A DNA stretch of 64,000 nt, from the NCBI RefSeq assembly GCF_053078305.1, contig NZ_CP166879.1. One strand, 5' to 3'. The notes under the pieces are model-generated. The model did not search any database and was not told where the DNA came from. It saw only the letters and a program-made list of their open reading frames with translations. This document shows positions 19,753 to 35,416 of the stretch, in pieces. Numbering within the stretch: the first letter of the stretch is position 1; every line of letters starts with the position of its first letter. The translations under genes were made by a program, and so were the position numbers.

Positions 19753-21810
19753 ATGAATATTATGACGTCCAAATGGGTTCAACTATCATCAATGCCCGGA
19801 AACTTTACCGTTAAAGTTTCCGGTGGTACAGCGGCATTTCTTGAGGCTCCTTTTCCTCCGGCTGAAACGAAAGGAGGAATGACATTTGCTGACTGTCTCA
19901 TCAGTTTTAATACACAGGATTGCCTGTGGGTAAGGCCAGTATCCGGTGATCCGAACGTGGAAATTACCGGAGCGGGTATTGGTGCTGTCATTCCGTTAAG
20001 TGCTGATGTTGCCGGTACTACTGAACCGTCAGACTGGGATAATGCTGAAACACATACCCGTCCGGCAGGAAATGAAACGGCTTCCAGCTCCCCTTCCTGG
20101 TATTACGTGATTGTTATAGCCGGTCAGTCCAATGCTTCATCTTATGGTGAAGGGTTGCCCCTGCCGGATTCTTATGATCGTCCTGATCCACGTATTATGC
20201 AGCTGGCACGCAGGAATACACAAACCCCCGGAGGTATTCCCTGCAAATACAATGAAATCATTCCAGCAGATCACTGCCTTCATGATGTTCAGAATATGAG
20301 TCTGCTGAACCATCCAAAAGCAGACCTGAAAAAAGGGCAGTATGGTTGTGTGGGTCAGGGACTTCATATTGCGAAAAAAGTATTACCGGTGATTCCTGCT
20401 GATGCCGGGATTTTACTGGTTCCCTGTGCCCGTGGCGGCTCTGCTTTTACAACCGGCGCAGTTGGCTCATTCGATCCGGCAAGTGGTGCAGCCGAGGCGT
20501 CACTACGCTGGGGAGTGGATACCCCACTGTATCAGGATCTTGTCAGTCGAACGAAAGCGGCACTTGAGGCGAATCCAAAGAATGTGCTGTTATCTGTCGT
20601 ATGGATTCAGGGGGAAGGAGACCTTAAAGCGACCCCGGCCCAGCATGGTGCCCAGTTTACTGCGATGGTGAAAAAATTCCGTGCGGATCTTGGTGCTTTC
20701 TCCGGTCAGTGTATTGGTGGTTCATCAGACAGTGTGCCGTGGTTATGTGGTGACACAACCTATGACTGGAAAGAGAAGAACCCGGCGGCATATGAAACCA
20801 TTTATAGCGGATATAAAAACCGGGCTTCCGAGAACATTCACTTTGTTCCACTGATGCACGATGAGTTCGGTAATAAAACCGCGACCAACCTGCCGGAGCA
20901 CGACCCGGATATCGCTTCTGCCGGGTATTATGGTGCGGAATCACGGGGAGATGGCAACTGGACAACAGCATCCAGGGCAACCCATTTTAGCTCCTGGGCG
21001 CGCCGTTTTCTGGTCTCAGATCGTTTTGCATCAGCAATTCTTAAATATGCAGGTCTGACCTCTGCATTTATTGCCGGTGTGGCCCCTGATGGTGAAGCCC
21101 TGCCTCAGCCCGCGCCGGGTGGAAAACCGGAAGCTCCGACAGGTAGTCAGCCAGGAAGCAGTGAGTCCCCCCAGCCGACATCCCCGTCACTCCGTACGCT
21201 GCTTTCACTTAAAGCATCAGCAGGGGAAGCCCCGGCTCAGGGATGGAAAATTACAGATGGTACAATCCAGCTGACGGACGAAGGTAAAGCGCTGACCGTA
21301 TCCAAACAAAGCGGAAAAACCTGGTCACTTACCCATGCGACCAGTGCTGCCGGAGAGCTGTTGCAGCATGGTGGTCAGTTGACCTGTAAATTCCGTCTGT
21401 CAGGTGAAGTAAAAGAAGGCCAGTTTGCTCTGGGTATTTACCTCCACACCGATACGGTCCCGGAAGGTGTAACCATGAGTGGTACAGGCACACCGTTCCT
21501 GATGGCGTATTATCTCCAGACAACAGGCGGCCAGTTAAATCTGATGCACCATAAAACAGGGGGGAATACGAAACTGGGATCATTTGGAGCCTACAATAAC
21601 CAGTGGCATACACTTGTCCTGAAGTTTACGGCGGGAAGTGCCCAGGTAACGCCTGTGCTGGATGGCACTCCGGGCCAGGCATTCCAGATGGTGAAAGATG
21701 CACTTTCCCCTGCCAAAGATACGCTGACACTGACAGATGTCACCAAAGGGGCAACTTATGGCGTGTCTTTTGAGAGCGTTGTCCTTGAGGTTAATACCCC
21801 TGCGGCATAA
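19753..21810 (+). CDS. SASA/DUF303-type carbohydrate esterase with C-terminal beta-sandwich (lectin-like) domain; accessory gene
   Basis: 685-aa ORF; GQSN motif (IAGQSNASSYGEG) about 120 aa from the N-terminus, typical of sialate-O-acetylesterase-like SGNH enzymes. No obvious signal peptide. Not part of the Mu core. Confidence 0.6.
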   Translation: MNIMTSKWVQLSSMPGNFTVKVSGGTAAFLEAPFPPAETKGGMTFADCLISFNTQDCLWVRPVSGDPNVEITGAGIGAVIPLSADVAGTTEPSDWDNAETHTRPAGNETASSSPSWYYVIVIAGQSNASSYGEGLPLPDSYDRPDPRIMQLARRNTQTPGGIPCKYNEIIPADHCLHDVQNMSLLNHPKADLKKGQYGCVGQGLHIAKKVLPVIPADAGILLVPCARGGSAFTTGAVGSFDPASGAAEASLRWGVDTPLYQDLVSRTKAALEANPKNVLLSVVWIQGEGDLKATPAQHGAQFTAMVKKFRADLGAFSGQCIGGSSDSVPWLCGDTTYDWKEKNPAAYETIYSGYKNRASENIHFVPLMHDEFGNKTATNLPEHDPDIASAGYYGAESRGDGNWTTASRATHFSSWARRFLVSDRFASAILKYAGLTSAFIAGVAPDGEALPQPAPGGKPEAPTGSQPGSSESPQPTSPSLRTLLSLKASAGEAPAQGWKITDGTIQLTDEGKALTVSKQSGKTWSLTHATSAAGELLQHGGQLTCKFRLSGEVKEGQFALGIYLHTDTVPEGVTMSGTGTPFLMAYYLQTTGGQLNLMHHKTGGNTKLGSFGAYNNQWHTLVLKFTAGSAQVTPVLDGTPGQAFQMVKDALSPAKDTLTLTDVTKGATYGVSFESVVLEVNTPAA

Positions 21811-21867
21811 TCGTGACGGCCGGGAATTTATCCGGCTGTAACATCAGTTAATAAGAGTGAGGCTTAT

Positions 21868-22047
21868 ATGACATATATAAACGTCTGCCTGCTGTATTTC
21901 TGCACGGTGGTTTGTTGTCTGTTGCTTGTCAGCGGTGGTTATAAAATTATTCGCAATTATTTTCGAAATAAAATTGATGCAGCTGCCGAGGAAAAGATAA
22001 AAAGCGGTGCTGTAATGCCGCAGCCGAAAGACTCCGGTCAGATTTAA
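21868..22047 (+). CDS. Small hydrophobic (probable membrane) peptide, 59 aa
   Basis: ATG with SD GAGTGAGG; N-terminus VCLLYFCTVVCCLLLV is strongly hydrophobic. Below the ORF-track length cutoff. Confidence 0.4.
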   Translation: MTYINVCLLYFCTVVCCLLLVSGGYKIIRNYFRNKIDAAAEEKIKSGAVMPQPKDSGQI

Positions 22048-22082
22048 TTTTTTGTGAACCAGAAAAGGAAAGGAGAATATTC

Positions 22083-22328
22083 ATGCCAGAGATTAAAGGC
22101 ACGGTTACTGAAGAGCTTGTCAAACAGGCACTTTATTCTGAAGAAGTGAACCGCGTGCTGAAGGCGCAGGTTCGCAAGGATTTTGAGGCACAAATCGACG
22201 CATATGTTGATGAAGTGCTGGCCCGAATGGTTGGCCATTCTCCGGCTGAAAACAGCACGGAGAATGAGCCTCAGCCCGTAGAGCAACCAGAGCCGGTTCA
22301 GCCCGGAACTGACAGTGCCATGATGTAA
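22083..22328 (+). CDS. Hypothetical acidic protein, 81 aa
   Basis: Strong SD (AAAGGAAAGGAGA) 6 nt upstream of the ATG. Confidence 0.45.
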   Translation: MPEIKGTVTEELVKQALYSEEVNRVLKAQVRKDFEAQIDAYVDEVLARMVGHSPAENSTENEPQPVEQPEPVQPGTDSAMM

Positions 22329-22402
22329 CAATACAAACCGACAGCTTCTCCTGTCGGTTTGATTTTCATGGGCGATGTATATACCAGTCAGAGGAAATAA
22401 TC

Positions 22403-22603
22403 ATGGACAAGAACAAAAAGCAGCCCGATACCAAAGGTCTGGAAATATTAAGCGCAGAAATTATCAATGCGCTACGTTCAGGACTTGATGAAAATACATT
22501 ACAGGATCGAAACTTCACCACTGCAATGTGGATAGCGATGCAGATCCTGTGTACCCCAAGATGCGCTATTTTTGCGGTTCGTGAGGGTCAGTTGACTCGC
22601 TGA
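22403..22603 (+). CDS. Hypothetical protein, 66 aa
   Basis: ORF with SD-like AGAGGAAA upstream. Confidence 0.4.
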   Translation: MDKNKKQPDTKGLEILSAEIINALRSGLDENTLQDRNFTTAMWIAMQILCTPRCAIFAVREGQLTR

Positions 22604-22772
22604 TTGCCCGAATTACATCAGAAAAGCACGCGTTCCATAATTGCATAGCTGATGAATCACCAGCTGTATGAAAAGAGGTAAAGACACAACTGGTGGATGT
22701 CATTGCTGCAATTGTGATATCAGCTGCAATTCGCGCAGCCTGTAACTTTTGGTCGGTGGTCAGTTTATCCAT
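22566..22772 (-). CDS. Hypothetical small protein, 68 aa (convergent with and overlapping the previous ORF)
   Basis: Minus-strand ORF; internal ATG (MDKLTTDQK...) preceded by AGGAGA. Confidence 0.3.
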   Translation of the reverse strand: MDKLTTDQKLQAARIAADITIAAMTSTSCVFTSFHTAGDSSAMQLWNACFSDVIRAISESTDPHEPQK

Positions 22773-22845
22773 TTTCTCCTGCCTGAACAGATGCATCTCT
22801 GCTTTACAGGAGGCCGGGGAATATCATAGGATACACCACGAGCTC

Positions 22846-23000
22846 AGAGTGAAGCATTGATGCAGTTTTTTACAGATTGACCCAGAATAGTTCGCGCTAT
22901 CTGAGTCGCCATTTATGTAGTCCCGAAGTAAAGCATTGATGCAAACTTGTCTAAATCGGCCCAGCATAGTTCCAGCTATGCTGGGTTTCCCTTTTATGTA
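22846..23000. repeat. Two tandem ~77-bp direct repeat units, each with AAGCATTGATGCA box plus hairpin plus TTTATGTAGT
   Basis: Copy 2 contains a perfect 10-bp inverted repeat CCCAGCATAG/CTATGCTGGG followed by a T-rich run; copy 1 is a degenerate version. Confidence 0.6.
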
Positions 23001-23184
23001 GTATCCTGTTGATTTGAAACATACTACATATACGCGCGATCCTACCTTCACTGGATAAAAAGTCAATAAAATGATCATTTTATGATCGTTTTCACCACCT
23101 AACTCTTCGTTTTCTTTAAGTAAATAATCACCGCCCTGAATCATTGTTGATGACTTTTCAATCTATTTGTTGTATCAATTAAAC

Positions 23185-23215
23185 AAATCGAATCGATCGT
23201 TTTTGTCGATCGATT
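23185..23215 (+). promoter_or_regulatory. GATC cluster upstream of com (putative Dam/OxyR-controlled mom promoter region)
   Basis: GATC at 23195 and 23208 within a short dyad; further GATC at 23038, 23073, 23084. Confidence 0.45.
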
Positions 23216-23258
23216 GCATGAGAAAGGCATCAACAACAAAGCAGGAGGTTATGCGGCC

Positions 23259-23459
23259 ATGTATCGAAACATACGGTGCCGACACTGCAATAAGCTACTG
23301 GCACGGGCCAGTTTCAGTTATCTGGAAGTAAAATGTCCGCGCTGTAAAACCCTCAATCAAATCACATCTCCGAGCGCCACAGAGCACCCCACATACACAA
23401 GGAAATCCTGTCGTGGGGAACAGAAAGCAAGTCACATCCCGTATCATCAGCACGCCTGA
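23259..23459 (+). CDS. com: Com zinc-finger translational activator of mom
   Basis: Motif [29 protein letters not shown]...EHPT aligns with the Mu Com C4 zinc finger as recalled; SD GCAGGAGG 10 nt upstream of the ATG at 23259. Confidence 0.75.
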
Positions 23460-24150
23460 ACTTATTCGCTATAACGACAATATCGTTGGTTATGGTTCCC
23501 GTGAGTTGCGGGTTGAGACAATAAGTTGCTGGCTGGCCAGACTGGTTATCGTCAATAAACATTACAGCCACCGTTTCGTAAATAACTCCTACCTTCATCT
23601 GGGCATATTTTCAGAACGGGAACTTGTTGGCGTAATGCAATGGGGTTACGCCCTTAACCCAAACAGTGGTGCACGCGTCGTAACGGGTACGCAGAACCGA
23701 GAATATATGGAGCTGAACCGGCTATGGATGCATGACTGTATGCCGAGAAACTCCGAATCAAGGGCAATCAGTTACGCGCTCAAGCTAATCAGGCAGCTTT
23801 ATCCGCAGGTACAGTGGGTTCAGTCGTTTGCAGATGAGCGTTGTGGCTGTCTTGGTGTCGTGTATCAGGCAAGCAATTTTGATTATGTAGGCAGCCATGA
23901 AACAATATTCTATGAACTTGATGGCGAGTGGTATCACGAGATTTGCAGGAATGCCATTAAACGAGGCGGACAACGAGGTGAACATCTGAGGGCTAATATC
24001 GACAGAGCCAGTGTGCATAAGTTCCGACAGTTTCGTTACATCCGGTTTCTGAACAAGAGGGCCAGAAAACGCCTCAACACAAAGCTATTCAAAGTCCAGC
24101 CTTACCCAAAACCACAAACAGTTAAAACTGGTTTGAAAGAGAGTGAATGA
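23413..24150 (+). CDS. mom: Mom-like DNA modification protein
   Basis: 245-aa ORF overlapping the com 3' end, last gene before the prophage right end as in Mu; start codon uncertain. Confidence 0.65.
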
Positions 24151-24295
24151 GCGCTTAAAAACTCATTCTAAAACTCAAAAGAAAAGCGCCGATTTAGTAT
24201 CAAATAAGTTGCGTATCGGCGTTTTTCAGCGGTATCAAATGAAATGCAAATCGGTATCAAAAAAATCGCCGCGCTATATGCCGCTGACCACAGCA
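24150..24295. other. Mu-like prophage right end (transposase-binding repeats) and junction with lambdoid Z remnant
   Basis: Repeated CGGTATC / GCGTTTTTCAGCGG motifs resembling MuA end-binding sites; sequence ends ...ACCACA (terminal CA) just before lambda-like coding sequence resumes. Confidence 0.35.
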
Positions 24296-24391
24296 TTTAA
24301 ACAGAATATTGAACGTATCCGGCGTGAACGCCTGCCAGAAGAACTGGCATATGCGCTGAAACAACAACTGAGGATTGCGATAAAACGATGA
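24296..24391 (+). pseudogene. 3' fragment of lambda Z-like tail gene, disrupted by the Mu-like insertion
   Basis: Short reading frame ending in ATGA overlap with the U start, as at a lambda Z/U junction; no N-terminal part present. Confidence 0.4.
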
Positions 24392-24783
24392 AACATACTG
24401 ATATCCGTGCAGCCGTACTGGATGCACTGGAGAAGCATGACACCGGGGCGACGCTGTTTGATGGTCGCCCCGCTGTTTTTGAGGAGGCGGATTTTCCGGC
24501 GGTCGCGGTTTATCTGACGGATGCAGAGTATACCGGTGAAGAGCTGGATGCTGATACCTGGCGGGCCACACTGCATATTGAGGTGTTTTTACCGGCACAG
24601 GTACCGGATTCAGAGCTTGATCAGTGGATGGAAAGCCGGATTTACCCGGCGATGGCGGCGATCCCTGCACTGGCAGGCATGATTACCACGATGGTTACGC
24701 AGGGCTATGAGTATCGTCGTGATGACGATATGGCATTGTGGAGCTCTGCAGATCTGACTTATTCCATTACATACGAGATGTGA
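24388..24783 (+). CDS. U: Minor tail protein U
   Basis: 131 aa, near-identical to lambda gpU as recalled ([22 protein letters not shown]...). Confidence 0.9.
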
Positions 24784-24790
24784 GGATGAT

Positions 24791-25540
24791 ATGGCAACAC
24801 CAAATCCCCTGGCGCCGGTAAAAGGTTCCGGCACCACGCTCTGGGTTTACACCGGTAAGGGCGATGCTTATGCAAACCCGCTGTCAGATGATGAGTGGAC
24901 GCGTCTGGCAAAAATAAAGGATCTGACCCCCGGCGAGATGACGGCGGAATCCTACGACGATAACTATCTGGATGATGAGGATGCTGACTGGGTATCCACC
25001 GGGCAGGGGCAGAAATCTGCCGGTGACACCAGTTTTACGCTGGCCTGGAAGCCCGGCGAGAAAGGGCAGCGTGATTTGATTGCCTGGTTTGACAGCAGTG
25101 AGACCCGGGCCTACAAAATCCGCTTCCCGAACGGTACGGTGGATGTGTTCCGTGGCTGGGTGAGCGCCATTGGTAAAGCGGTGACTGCCAAAGAAGTGAT
25201 TACCCGTACGGTAAAAATCACCAATATTGGTCGTCCGTCGCTGGCGGAGGATCGGGGAGAAATCACACCGGTCACCGGTATTACCGTGACGCCACTAACG
25301 GGGAATGTGGCAAAAGGTCAGAGCACCACCCTGACTGTGGCCGTTCAGCCGGAAGGCGCAACGGATAAAACATTCCGCGCAACGTCGGCAAATCAGAATT
25401 TCGCCACCATTACCGTGAAAGGGAACACGATCACCGTGAAAGGTGTTGCGGCAGGTAAAGCGCAGATCCCTGTTGTCACCGGCAACGGTGAGTTTGCGGC
25501 GGTGGCGGAGATCACCGTTACGGATGGCGCTGCGGGCTGA
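24791..25540 (+). CDS. V: Major tail protein V (with C-terminal Ig-like domain)
   Basis: 249 aa, lambda V-like N-terminus. Confidence 0.9.
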
Positions 25541-25556
25541 GGGGAGGAGATCAAGC

Positions 25557-25979
25557 ATGTTCCTGAAAACAGAACAATTTGAATATAACGGTGTGTCCGT
25601 CACGCTGTCGGAACTGTCCGCGCTGCAGCGGTTTGATTATATAAAGTTTGTTTCAGACGCAGCACAACAGGAGACAACGGAGCATGATGCCGTGCACATT
25701 AACCAGCGATATCTGGAAACGGCATCCCTGCTTGTGGCGATGTCGCTATGGCATTCCCATTCCCTCAAAGGCACTCTGGCCTCTCCGGAGACAGAGATGC
25801 AGCAGATCCGCCGTGAAGTGATGCTGGGATGGCCTGCTGATGCACTGAATCAGGCAACGAACCGGGTGCTTTATCTTTCAGGTATGCTGGATAACCGGCA
25901 CGATGCCGATCCTGAACAAACCGGGAAAGCAGAAGCGACTGAGCCGGTAACATCAAAAAAGCATTCGAAGGCGAGCTGA
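25557..25979 (+). CDS. G: Tail assembly chaperone G
   Basis: ATG at 25557 with SD GAGGGGAGGAG; about 140 aa. Confidence 0.85.
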   Translation: MFLKTEQFEYNGVSVTLSELSALQRFDYIKFVSDAAQQETTEHDAVHINQRYLETASLLVAMSLWHSHSLKGTLASPETEMQQIRREVMLGWPADALNQATNRVLYLSGMLDNRHDADPEQTGKAEATEPVTSKKHSKAS

Positions 25980-26419
25980 ACTTTGTCCTGAAACTGGCGC
26001 GTGAGATGGGGAGAGCCGACTGGCGCGCCATGCTTGCCGGGATGACATCCACCGAATATGCCGACTGGCGACGTTTTTACTGCACGCATTATTTTCAGGA
26101 TACCCAACTGGACGCTCATTTTTCCGGGCTGATGTACGCCGTACTCAGCCTGTTTTTTGGCGATCCGGATATGCATCCGGCGGATTTCAGTCTGCTTGCT
26201 CCAGCGTGTGAGGAAGAGCAGACGGAGATGCCGGACGAGGAAGAAATGCTGATGCAGAAAGCGACAGGAGTTGCCGGAGGCGTCCGGTTCGGAGGGGACG
26301 GGGGACGCGATATTTCACCTTCTGCGGATGTGGTGGATGTCAGCGAGGATGATGTTGCATTAATGATGGCTTCAGCGGGGATTTCCGGAGGTGTGAGATA
26401 TGTCCCAGCCAGCGGGTGA
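25557..26419 (+). CDS. T: Tail assembly chaperone G-T fusion via programmed -1 frameshift at 25955-25961
   Basis: T ORF is in the -1 frame; zero-frame heptamer A-AAA-AAG near the end of G. Confidence 0.7.
25955..25961 (+). other. Slippery heptamer A_AAA_AAG (-1 programmed frameshift site)
   Basis: Zero-frame codons TCA-AAA-AAG; the -1 frame continues uninterrupted into the T ORF. Confidence 0.7.
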
Positions 26420-29012
26420 TCTGGTTATTGATTTGAGTCTGGATGCGGCCCGGTTTGATGAACAGATGGCCCGGGTACGCCGTCATTTTTCCAGTCTGGA
26501 GGCGGATGCCAGAAAAACCGCCAGTACTGTTGAACAGGGGCTGAGCCGACAGGCGCTGGCTGCACAAAAAGCCGGGATATCAGTCGGACAGTATAAGGCT
26601 GCCATGCGCACACTGCCCGCACAGTTCACGGATATTGTCACTCAGCTTGCCGGTGGTCAGAATCCCTTCCTTATCATGCTGCAGCAGGGGGGGCAGATCA
26701 GCGATTCATTCGGTGGACCGCTCAGCCTGCTTACCCTGCTGAAGGAGGAACTTCTCGGGATCAGGGATGCCTCTGAATCATCAGAGGATTCGCTGTCAGA
26801 TACGGCAAATGCTCTGGCTGAAAATGCCCGGAATGCCGGTGAACTGGGACGATTTATGTCGGTGGCCCGTGTGGCGGCAGGTGGCGGGGTTGCCGTACTG
26901 GCCGCGCTTGCTGCTGCCGCCTGGCAGGCAGAGCAGGCTGACCGGGCCTTATTGCGTTCACTGACCCTGACCGGAGGGGCGGCTGCCACCACAACGGCCG
27001 AATTGTGGAAAATGGCCGGGGTGATCAGCGATGAAGCCGGTGGTGGTATCAGACAGGCGGCAGAAAATCTGGCCCGTCTGGCAGAAAGCGGGAAATATAC
27101 CGCCGGGCAGCTACGGATCATGGGGGAAACCTCTCAGAGATGGCTGCAGACGGTGGGGGACGATGCCGGGAAGGTGGAAAAAGCCTTTGAAGGGATTGCA
27201 GCAGATCCGGTGAAGGCGCTGGCCTCCCTGAATCAGCAGTATAACTTCCTGAGCGTTTCCCAGTTACGCCATATTGATGAGCTTGAGCGCACGAAAGGTA
27301 AACAGGCTGCGGTGACGGAGGCGATGTCCCTGTTTGCGGATGTTATGAATGCACGTCTGGAGCAACTTGATAAAGCGGCCACGCCGGTGGAAAAAATCTG
27401 GGACGATGTTAAAACCTGGACTTCTGACGCATGGGCATGGATAGGTGATCATACACTGGGGGCACTCAGTCTGATCACTGACGTGGTGGCAGGAACCGTT
27501 GAACAGGTGAAGCTGCTGCTTGTGCAGGGGGATCTGGCGCTGGCTGAATTTATTCAGTCAGCCTGGGAAACGACAAAGAATGTGCCCGGCGTTGGTGCGT
27601 TGTTTGGTGAACTGGCAGAAGAGAACCGCGTATTTATTGAGAAAACAAAACGCGATGAACTGGCGCTGAGAAAATCCATTGCGGAACGGGATGCGCGTAT
27701 ACGCCAGGGGGAAATGGGGTACATCAACCGTTCGCGTGCAACAGGCGTCAGCAAAGGTCCGGGGCAGCAGGAAGCCGTCAGCCGTCTGGCTGAAGAGCTG
27801 ACAGGTAAAAAGCATACATCACCGAAAACGCGCTCTGCCGGGGAGAGGGAAGAGGAGCAGGCAAGAGAGGCTCTGCTTGCCCTTGAAGCTGAACTCAGGA
27901 CGCTGGAAAAACACAGCGGTGCGAATGAGAAAATCAGCCGGCAACGCCGTGATTTATGGAAGGCGGAAAGTCAGTATGCGGTCCTGAAAGAGGCTGCCAC
28001 GAAACGACAGTTATCCGGGCAGGAAAAATCCCTGCTGGCCCATGAGAAAGAGACGCTGGAGTACAAACGCCAGCTGGCTGAGCTGGGCGACAAGGTTGAA
28101 TACCAGAAACGCCTGAATGAGCTGGCACAGCAGGCGGCACGGTTTGAAGAGCAGCAGAGCGCGAAGCAGGCCGCCATCAGCGCAAAAGCCCGTGGTCTCA
28201 CTGACCGTCAGGCGCAGCGGGAGTCTGAAGCGCAGCGTCTTCGTGACGTGTATGGCGATAATCCGCAGGCGCTGGCACAGGTCACCGGGGCACTGAAACA
28301 GACATGGGCGGATGAAGACATGCTGCGCGGTGACTGGCTGGCCGGGCTGAAGTCCGGCTGGGGCGAGTGGGCAGAAAGTGCGACGGACAGTTTTTCGCAG
28401 GTTAAAAGTGCTGCCACGCAGACCTTTGACGGTATTGCGCAGAATATGGCGGCGATGCTGACCGGTGCAGAGGCAGACTGGCGGGGATTCACCCGTTCGG
28501 TGCTGTCCATGATGACAGAAATCCTGCTTAAACAGGCCATGGTGGGAATTGTCGGGCGTATCGGCAGTGCCATTGGTGGTGCTTTCGGTGGTGGTGCATC
28601 TGCTTCCTCGGGGACGGCCATTGAGGCTGCGGCGGCGAACTTCCATTTCGCGACCGGAGGATTTACGGGGACGGGCGGCAAATATGAGCCTGCGGGGATA
28701 GTTCACCGCGGGGAGTTTGTTTTCACGAAAGAGGCAACCAGCCGGATAGGTGTGGGGAATCTTTACCGTCTGATGCGCGGGTATGCGGAAGGTGGTTATG
28801 TGGGTGCTGCCGGAAGTCCGGCGCAGATGCGGCGGGCGGAAGGTATTAATTTTAATCAGAACAATCACGTGGTGATTCAGAACGACGGTATCAACGGACA
28901 GGCGGGGCCGCAGCTGATGAAGGCGGTGTATGACATGGCCCGTAAGGGGGCGCAGGATGAACTCCGGCTGCAGTTACGTGATGGCGGTATGTTATCAGGG
29001 AGCGGGCGATGA
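26400..29012 (+). CDS. H: Tail tape measure protein H
   Basis: 870 aa; N- and C-terminal regions closely resemble lambda H. Confidence 0.9.
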   Translation: MSQPAGDLVIDLSLDAARFDEQMARVRRHFSSLEADARKTASTVEQGLSRQALAAQKAGISVGQYKAAMRTLPAQFTDIVTQLAGGQNPFLIMLQQGGQISDSFGGPLSLLTLLKEELLGIRDASESSEDSLSDTANALAENARNAGELGRFMSVARVAAGGGVAVLAALAAAAWQAEQADRALLRSLTLTGGAAATTTAELWKMAGVISDEAGGGIRQAAENLARLAESGKYTAGQLRIMGETSQRWLQTVGDDAGKVEKAFEGIAADPVKALASLNQQYNFLSVSQLRHIDELERTKGKQAAVTEAMSLFADVMNARLEQLDKAATPVEKIWDDVKTWTSDAWAWIGDHTLGALSLITDVVAGTVEQVKLLLVQGDLALAEFIQSAWETTKNVPGVGALFGELAEENRVFIEKTKRDELALRKSIAERDARIRQGEMGYINRSRATGVSKGPGQQEAVSRLAEELTGKKHTSPKTRSAGEREEEQAREALLALEAELRTLEKHSGANEKISRQRRDLWKAESQYAVLKEAATKRQLSGQEKSLLAHEKETLEYKRQLAELGDKVEYQKRLNELAQQAARFEEQQSAKQAAISAKARGLTDRQAQRESEAQRLRDVYGDNPQALAQVTGALKQTWADEDMLRGDWLAGLKSGWGEWAESATDSFSQVKSAATQTFDGIAQNMAAMLTGAEADWRGFTRSVLSMMTEILLKQAMVGIVGRIGSAIGGAFGGGASASSGTAIEAAAANFHFATGGFTGTGGKYEPAGIVHRGEFVFTKEATSRIGVGNLYRLMRGYAEGGYVGAAGSPAQMRRAEGINFNQNNHVVIQNDGINGQAGPQLMKAVYDMARKGAQDELRLQLRDGGMLSGSGR

Positions 29013-35077: not shown

Positions 35078-35275
35078 ACATCGCGCCCCGGGATTGCCGG
35101 AAGGAGACAAAAACCGTACAGTATGCGCGGGTGCCTTTGGCTGATGGCCGGAGGGAACACCTGAAGGCCGGAAAGACGAAGGCCCCGGACAAACATTCAT
35201 GTTTAACCCGAGGCCTGACTTTCGATCTTCAGCAAATTGAAGGTTAGCGCCTCTCCGTAAAAGGAGCAAGCGTTT

Positions 35276-35416
35276 ATGTCGCAAAAACCGTTAAAAACCA
35301 CCGTGATTTGTACCACGGTAGTGCTCATTATCTGGATCACCCACACTTCACTGTGCGAGTTCCGGTTCCGGATAGCGGGCGCGGAGATTGCGGCGTTCTT
35401 ACAGTGTAAGCAGTAA
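35276..35416 (+). CDS. Hok/Gef-family type I toxin-like small membrane protein, 46 aa, in the lom position
   Basis: MSQKPLKTTVICTTVVLIIWITHTSLCEFRFRIAGAEIAAFLQCKQ carries the Hok signature (TM helix, then SLCE-x-R-x-R...E-I/V-AAF...C); SD AAGGAG 9 nt upstream. Confidence 0.6.
   Translation: MSQKPLKTTVICTTVVLIIWITHTSLCEFRFRIAGAEIAAFLQCKQ

Follow-up and report, generated by a model that had tools for sequence, protein, structure and literature searches.

Untimely expression of the mom gene of phage Mu is cytotoxic, and several layers of control guard the gene; Mu also has a divergent promoter, momP2 (PMC3378877). The locus examined here shares with the Mu mom control region the com-mom operon itself, GATC clusters upstream of the operon, and a possible divergent leftward promoter. 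It differs from that region in having a three-hairpin module that Mu and D108 do not carry and that is located upstream of the GATC sites, outside the known control region. The spacer between gin and com, free of the element in both phages, measures 94 bp in Mu and 82 bp in D108. Another comparison is offered by the anti-sRNAs and convergent sRNA pairs of EHEC, such as AgvB and AsxR (Tree et al. 2014, PMC4104026), which occur in the same host and beside accessory (moron) genes, and which resemble our element in having a variable part beside a hairpin and convergent promoter-like sites. However, the element has no sequence or Rfam similarity to this class, its hairpin varies while its flanks are constant, and no Hfq peak is reported for it in strain Sakai. 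REP/BIME, ERIC, and similar E. coli repeats are, like the element, imperfect palindromes in non-coding DNA that are prone to rearrangement, but the element is not dispersed, as all 251 places at which it was identified are the same locus by the mom promoter.

Genomic setting of the element

The window, by which we mean the whole stretch of 64,000 nucleotides that was analyzed (contig NZ_CP166879.1, RefSeq assembly GCF_053078305.1), contains the right end of an Sp18-type Mu-like prophage, and the element is located there, with the accessory genes on one side and the com-mom control region on the other. In strain Sakai, this right end carries the annotation Sp18, a Mu-like phage. The prophage ends at ~24278 and lambdoid tail genes lie beyond this point, indicating that the Mu-like prophage is nested in a lambdoid prophage. 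The following features define the surroundings of the element:

17647-17672 and 19021-19046: invertase crossover sites of the prophage
17655-17836 and 18858-19039: inverted repeats of the invertible tail-fiber segment
19102-19662: Gin/Pin-type recombinase
22334-22361, unstranded: hairpin after the DUF826 gene, terminator-like in both directions, at the end of the DUF6645-DUF1378-DUF826 accessory block
22403-22603, plus strand: 66-aa gene, the nearest plus-strand gene upstream of the element
23071-23092, unstranded: tandem pair of the 11-bp sequence ATGATCNTTTT with two GATC sites, a candidate for Dam/OxyR-type control of the com-mom promoter by analogy with Mu
23259-23459, plus strand: com
23413-24150, plus strand: mom, whose product is 79% identical to Mu Mom

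After the recombinase, the genes follow in the order DUF6645, DUF1378, DUF826, the 66-aa gene, com, and mom. The changes in the 66-aa gene are mostly synonymous (11 synonymous versus 3 nonsynonymous, and 8 versus 2). The GATC cluster of Mu itself aligns to another GATC palindrome, at 23190-23215. With com starting at 23259, the repeats are located upstream of com, as a preliminary description of this stretch had it.

An internal duplication in a three-hairpin module

That description had reported a tandem pair of ~77-bp units, each with two conserved boxes and an inverted repeat. The repeat is real, as the local alignment score of unit 1 against unit 2 (54) lies far beyond the scores of 2000 shuffles (13.3 +/- 2.1, maximum 23), and 59 of the 82 columns in a global alignment are identical; the period, though, is 79 and 81 bp and not 77. 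A repeat finder returned direct repeats of 53 nt (75% identity, spacing 79) and 13 nt (92% identity, spacing 81), and Tandem Repeats Finder gave no report of the unit pair because the copies are too diverged. All of the sequence features that had been listed are present where they had been placed: box A (AAGCATTGATGCA) in exact copies at 22852-22864 and 22931-22943, box B (TTTATGTAGT) in copies at 22912-22921 and 22993-23002, and the perfect 10-bp inverted repeat CCCAGCATAG/CTATGCTGGG at 22960-22969 and 22976-22985. The inverted repeat is perfect in the second unit, as described, but its counterpart in the first unit is degenerate, with a bulge and a mismatch. Separately, the 79-bp repeat can break short-read assemblies, and one contig contains NN at the repeat.

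Each box has a third, inverted copy outside the interval from 22846 to 23000 that had been considered earlier, located at 22792-22807 for box A and at 23021-23030 for box B. Given this outlying inverted copy for each of them, boxes A and B are arms of larger hairpins and not free-standing motifs or operators. The parts of the module and the features overlapping it in the window are as follows:

22792-22864, plus strand: SL1, a long imperfect stem-loop (~73 nt) recognized as an inverted repeat and by folding, with the 5' arm TGCATCTCTGCTTTAC at 22792-22807 and the 3' arm GTGAAGCATTGATGCA at 22849-22864 (box A, copy 1)
22803-22832, plus strand: sigma-70-like match TTTACA-18-TAGGAT inside SL1 (9/12), the number of such matches being equal to the shuffle expectation
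22824-23144, minus strand: 106-aa ORF spanning the repeat, with the Sakai counterpart ECs_4996 (phrog_26524)
22845-22923, unstranded: repeat unit 1, consisting of the SL1 3' arm, linker s1, a degenerate SL2, and an extra SL3 5' arm
22881-22905, plus strand: SL2 of unit 1, CCCAGAATAG/CTATCTGAG, degenerate through one bulged A and one C x A mismatch
22912-22943, unstranded: duplication junction, consisting of the surplus SL3 5' arm TTTATGTAGT (22912-22921) and the surplus SL1 3' arm GTAAAGCATTGATGCA (22928-22943)
22924-23004, unstranded: repeat unit 2, consisting of the extra SL1 3' arm, linker s2, an intact SL2 of type A, and the SL3 5' arm
22958-22996, plus strand: SL2 of type A, with the stem 22960-22969/22976-22985, extendable to 13 pairs, and the tail TTTCCCTTTTAT
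22995-23030, unstranded: SL3, AU-rich, formed by TATGTAGTAT (box B, copy 2) and its partner ATACTACATA (23021-23030)
23039-23066, minus strand: sigma-70-like match TTGACT-16-TAGGAT (9/12, chance-level), with a predicted start at ~23031, the foot of SL3

SL1 folds at -30 kcal/mol with Watson-Crick pairs throughout and is directly followed by G+T6 (22865-22871, linker s1), and the GC-rich SL2 sits between SL1 and SL3. In the single-unit relative L002, the element folds into three consecutive hairpins at -63 kcal/mol, and none of 200 shuffles folded as well; the fold of single-unit relatives has z = -6.1 on either strand. The window sequence folds in the same way with the extra unit mostly unpaired (z = -3.3 and -3.7). 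The SL2 of unit 1 reaches -10.2 kcal/mol versus -21 for that of unit 2, and each of the four distinct two-unit variants shows the same defect in unit 1. The pair of units represents an internal tandem duplication of a ~170-nt non-coding SL1-SL2-SL3 module, the duplicated segment being composed of the SL1 3' arm, the linker, SL2, and the SL3 5' arm.

Distribution and a hypervariable cassette

A search of 5426 complete E. coli genomes resulted in 251 places in 213 genomes, with a median of one place per genome. Each match spans at least 80% of the query and takes in its mom promoter part, and all are the same locus. The element is kept in related prophages, a point on which the preliminary description is supported. 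A junction-specific search found the duplication junction in 8 of the 5426 genomes. The other 205 of the 213 element-bearing genomes contain one unit (matches spanning 235-252 nt in two pieces), so the two-unit arrangement did not hold up as a functional architecture. Since the boxes are hairpin arms and two units are rare, neither tandem operators nor two small-RNA genes, both of which had been suggested for the pair, are likely to be what selection maintains; the lack of an Rfam match and of an Hfq-bound sRNA at this place in Sakai also speaks against the latter. Two-unit prophages are inserted at different chromosomal sites, namely near yahK, near ves/spy, and, in the window, inside a lambdoid prophage, which indicates that the phage lineage carrying the duplication has moved.

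Searches with nhmmer did not detect the element in Mu or D108, nor upstream of mom in 16 mom loci of other species in GTDB. Among the INPHARED phages, it was found only in the Stx-phage records LC727881.1 and LC727895.1, both of which contain an inserted Mu-like prophage, and scans of metagenomes and IMG/VR returned only the three cassette alleles described below. No Rfam 15 family matched positions 22300-23500 at gathering thresholds, and the matches at E <= 10 were chance-level. A dispersed intergenic repeat or MITE was rejected, as the element has one locus, a median of one place per genome, and no copies in other phages. An origin from lambdoid or other phages was likewise rejected, as the element and its upstream region match only records with the same Mu-like insert. 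The element is confined to one narrow prophage lineage. It is an undescribed but ordinary-looking structured intergenic module with the two-unit form as a rare allele, and not a new kind of system.

The linker and SL2 together form a cassette with three alleles, which differ in SL2 as follows:

Allele s1 + A: CCCAGCATAG/CTATGCTGGG
Allele s2 + B: CCCAGAATAG/CTAT-CTGGG, with a bulged A
Allele s3 + C: GTCCAGATAG/CTATCTGGAC, a perfect stem

The alleles were folded one by one, as the 3' arms of SL2 B and C were out of register in the MAFFT alignment. Allele s1 + A makes up ~80% of the copies in an even sample of the matches. Two-unit forms have s1 with degenerate B in the first unit, followed by either s2 + A or s2 + B in the second. 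When L079 and L003 were compared, the flanks differed at 15 of 1231 columns (1.2%) and the 55-column cassette at 26 (47%; Fisher's exact p = 1e-28). A stem of 10-13 bp is nonetheless kept in all cassette alleles, and SL2 types B and C are distinguished by one compensatory change from C-G to T-A and one change from a wobble to a Watson-Crick pair. With flanks that are 98-100% identical among related phages, an invariant SL1 and SL3 do not by themselves point to selection. The sharply local hypervariable hairpin cassette is the only unusual property of the element, and the sole feature with potential for something more interesting; at 55 nt, it is also a handy typing marker for Sp18-like prophages in STEC.

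Allele s1 + A matches a window-type array collapsed within CCCAG, and s2 + B matches an L043-type array collapsed within box A. Judging from these sequences, the single-unit alleles appear to be mosaics, each derivable from a two-unit form by one homologous deletion in a different register, and the simplest history would then be an older array of diverged units that was sorted by unequal crossover. Alternatively, the cassettes may have been imported by recombination from unseen relatives or may reflect diversifying selection. A diversity-generating retroelement was rejected, as the differences between units are not adenine-specific and the ORFs in 19000-27000 include no reverse transcriptase gene.

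Possible roles of the module

We tentatively favor the reading that the module is a rightward terminator or insulator shielding com-mom, with the duplication as a neutral by-product of unequal recombination. On the plus strand, the module would act as a cluster of intrinsic terminators or insulators by means of the U6 after SL1 and the U-rich tail after SL2, and rightward transcription from the accessory genes would be halted before com-mom, an operon that is cytotoxic in Mu when expressed at the wrong time. The duplication would probably have no separate function and would stem from the repeated hairpin arms, by slippage or by unequal recombination between them. This preference follows from terminator features confined to one strand, the predominance of s1 + A, the presence of terminators in other mom prophages, and the toxicity of mom. 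SL2 types A and C, with 12-13 pairs, pass a terminator scan on the plus strand and never on the minus strand; on the plus strand, SL2 reaches -17 to -21.5 kcal/mol in all alleles, versus only -8 to -14 for type B on the minus strand. Canonical intrinsic terminators are located upstream of com-mom in Serratia/Yersinia mom prophages (L088, L091, L093, and L094). The preliminary description had also proposed terminators, and this idea survives for the SL2 of unit 2, which is terminator-like on the plus strand, but not for the two-unit layout, which is rare (8 of 213 genomes).

Known intrinsic and tandem insulator terminators resemble the element in having a GC-rich stem of 10-13 bp with a T-rich tail on one strand only, here joined by a second hairpin with T6, and in the placement between an accessory block and a tightly controlled toxic operon. 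The element departs from them in that its U-tract is interrupted (UUUCCCUUUU) and is absent in type B, SL1 is unusually long (73 nt), and the third, AU-rich hairpin has no tail. The U-tract of type B SL2 is poor (UCGCCCUUUAUG), this type does not pass the terminator scan, and linkers s2 and s3 provide no U-run after SL1, the T6 occurring with s1 only, so intrinsic termination is not conserved across the alleles. It also counts against a terminator that relatives with the type B upstream region have no intact plus-strand gene directly upstream, that the DUF826 block has a terminator of its own, and that Mu and D108 manage without the element. Strand-informative substitutions (G-U versus A-C) were uninformative, with ~3 for the plus strand and ~4 for the minus strand. 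As a terminator or insulator, the module would be one more safeguard in the layered control of cytotoxic mom, and a means by which a Mu-like phage keeps accessory genes from lambdoid phages transcriptionally separate from mom.

Less probable, and in our assessment unlikely, is that a leftward transcript starts from the promoter-like site at 23066-23039 and has the module as its structured 5' leader. Beyond SL3', SL2', and SL1', such an RNA would reach a Shine-Dalgarno sequence and the ATG GAT AAA of a minus-strand ORF that is small and variable. The hairpins would serve to stabilize the RNA or to gate translation, and the promoter would be the counterpart of the divergent momP2 of Mu (PMC3378877), which lends the proposal some support. 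The promoter-like site is kept in all alleles, and SL3 begins 1-2 nt past the predicted start. A Shine-Dalgarno sequence with ATGGATAAA follows right after SL1 on the minus strand in both upstream region types, and the hairpin after DUF826, being terminator-like both ways, could end such a transcript. In L078, moreover, SL3 is fully paired on the minus strand only (-11.0 versus -6.3 kcal/mol). However, promoter matches of 9/12 occur at chance frequency (2 found versus 1.5-1.8 expected), and SL2 of type B is weak on the minus strand. The minus-strand ORFs are often broken: in many relatives, homopolymer and 1-nt indels shift the frame of the zinc-ribbon version, and in the window-type ORF, ATG has become ATA in L118, while L001 has a premature stop.

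Next in order, and doubtful as well, comes the view that the module is a functionless relic, that is, palindromic DNA left at a mosaic junction of accessory cassettes, where slippage at hairpins and unequal recombination would have produced duplications, collapses, and shuffled alleles with no selected role. Homology between the two types of upstream region breaks off precisely at the 5' foot of SL1, the neighboring small ORFs are decaying, the element is limited to one narrow phage lineage, and one or two units are both tolerated, all of which would be consistent with a relic, as would flanks too alike for invariance to prove constraint. Against a relic stand the extreme predicted structure (z = -6.1) and the fact that SL2 alleles as dissimilar as these three all retain a 10-13-bp stem, a compensatory pair change included. 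In addition, SL2 is degenerate only where it is redundant, in the two-unit forms.

We consider it quite unlikely that the module encodes one plus-strand sRNA (two in the window) that starts at ~22840 from the TTTACA-18-TAGGAT match inside SL1 and ends at SL2, with box A and the variable linker in between as a seed candidate. Such an sRNA could overlap with a convergent leftward RNA, making the cassette a cis-antisense specificity module. A plus-strand promoter-like match and the terminator-like SL2 are indeed ~80-150 nt apart, the linker is U-rich, two promoter-like sites converge, and the cassette is sharply hypervariable with its hairpin kept; short convergent sRNAs whose 5' parts vary are known from prophages of this host (PMC4104026). 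Yet the promoter match is at chance level, the tail that would serve as terminator is not conserved in type B, and Rfam offers no family, only chance-level matches at E <= 10. The Sakai Hfq crosslinking map, obtained under one set of growth conditions, has no sRNA at the element, and its only entry in Sp18 is EcOnc37 (5077340-5077410; Table S2, PMC4104026), which falls inside the DUF6645 gene (ECs_4993), ~1 kb from the element. ECs4995-4997 are likewise absent from an RNase E CLASH data set, and a literature search on ECs4996-4998 returned nothing.

A related reading of still lower probability takes the module as a new structured regulatory RNA locus, in which convergent promoters at 22803-22832 (plus strand) and 23066-23039 (minus strand) would give rise to sense and antisense RNAs that overlap over the linker and SL2, with the cassette as the specificity determinant. 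If this were true, the cassette would be comparable to the specificity loops of antisense-RNA control in plasmids and phage immunity, co-resident Mu-like prophages could independently control read-through into their own mom or cargo gene, and the two-unit form of the window would carry two specificities.

It is very improbable that the boxes are DNA-level protein sites, whether tandem operators, crossover sites of a Gin/Pin-type invertase, or MuA transposase sites. In favor of such sites, both boxes recur, in direct as well as inverted orientation, and GCTTTACAGGAG in SL1 resembles one half-site of the crossover sites of the phage itself (9/12). A gix/hix-type crossover site needs two inverted 12-bp half-sites, however, and the element has one half only, with no second half around a 2-bp core; this candidate was rejected. 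MuA end-binding sites were rejected as well, since the right end of the prophage (~24190-24278), where such a site would be expected, contains no box-like sequence. As for operators, the arms of SL1 are 41 nt apart, which is not operator-like, and most copies have each box once per orientation.

The weakest reading, that the repeat lies in a real minus-strand gene (ECs_4996) and is an in-gene duplication, can be dismissed in spite of the 106-aa ORF at 22824-23144, the intact 154-aa ECs_4996 of Sakai, and a PHROG match at E = 2.5e-52 (phrog_26524, function unknown), as the ORF counterpart is annotated by PGAP as frameshifted or partial in 6/6 other related genomes whose annotation was read, and the indels, like the 79-bp repeat unit, are not multiples of three. 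The alleles are 207, 213, and 215 nt long and the two-unit forms 292-294 nt, giving differences of 2, 6, 8, and 79 nt that are incompatible with a conserved reading frame, and the minus-strand ORFs over the element differ between relatives. The conclusion that no convincing ORF explains the conservation, drawn in the preliminary description, is thereby sustained. The N-terminal half of the protein would moreover be the antisense of the mom control region, NCBIfam gave no match for the ECs_4996-type ORF, and the PHROG match probably stems from a few phage records in which this same DNA is annotated. Non-coding DNA has probably been misannotated both in the "hypothetical proteins" of the ECs_4996 type and in the PGAP pseudogenes that derive from them.

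Divergence of the cassette and the 79-bp duplication

When the prophages L079 and L003 were compared, 47% of the columns of the 55-nt cassette formed by the linker and the GC-rich hairpin SL2 (window 22864-22995) differed, as against 1.2% of its flanks (cassette versus flanks, Fisher p = 1e-28). Only three alleles of this cassette were present across all collections searched.

In L072 (IMG/VR contig 2703718800_000013), the assembly carries NN exactly at the repeat, at ~7400 (GACCCAGNNCCCAGCATAG). This placement suggests that short-read assemblies are broken or collapsed by the 79-bp duplication, and two-unit forms of the module may therefore be under-counted in draft data.

Small ORFs upstream and the com leader

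Two overlapping small ORFs lie upstream of com in the window, and a third occurs in relatives whose upstream region is of the other type.

22566-22772, minus strand: small ORF, antisense to the plus-strand ORF at 22693-22860
22693-22860, plus strand: small ORF with a hydrophobic N-terminus (VDVIAAIVISAAIRAACNFWSVVSLSIF)
L003 4812-5006 and Sakai (L129) ~4640-4820, minus strand: small zinc-ribbon ORF (CPAC...CPAC), in relatives of this other type

The third codon positions of the two overlapping antisense ORFs are in register, so substitution patterns cannot show which of them, if either, is real. In L118 the minus-strand ORF no longer has its ATG, and in L001 it is interrupted by a premature stop. 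The zinc-ribbon ORF is frameshifted in many copies by T/G homopolymer changes and 1-nt indels near the ORF start.

The three-GATC OxyR region of Mu aligns to 23191-23215 of the window, only ~45 nt from the com ATG, and the promoter layout of com-mom must therefore differ from that of Mu. The same interval holds a GATC-rich palindrome (AATCGATCG...CGATCGATT) with a terminator-like score on the minus strand. The com leader also contains a 23-nt inverted repeat (23135-23157 / 23223-23245, 78% complementary), which could sequester the com Shine-Dalgarno sequence.

Known RNAs, the hexanucleotide array and the right end of the prophage

Two Rfam matches in the window exceeded the gathering score, one to the Hfq-binding RNA STnc560 (276 bits, 47657-47872) and the other to sok (63.5 bits, 35129-35287), the antitoxin RNA in hok/sok-type systems. 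In Sakai (NC_002695.2), the Hfq-bound RNA EcOnc37 lies antisense to the Sp18 DUF6645 gene, inside its 3' end (5077340-5077410, minus strand) (PMC4104026), and the DUF6645-DUF1378 intergenic region (5077478-5077623) is one of the well-covered Hfq intergenic sites; the window counterpart of both is at ~21670-21960.

Elsewhere in the Mu-like prophage, a 143-aa ORF (5797-6228) contains (Ala-Glu)15, encoded by a perfect array of the hexanucleotide AGCCGA (x 14.8, 6075-6163). Slippage could change the length of this array.

The right end of the Mu-like prophage (...AATCGCCGCGCTATA, ~24278) adjoins a lambdoid tail-gene cluster.

From 24388: tail terminator-like and major tail genes (lambdoid)

The Mu-like phage has thus inserted by transposition into a second prophage; LC727881 and LC727895, both Stx phages, also carry such an insertion.
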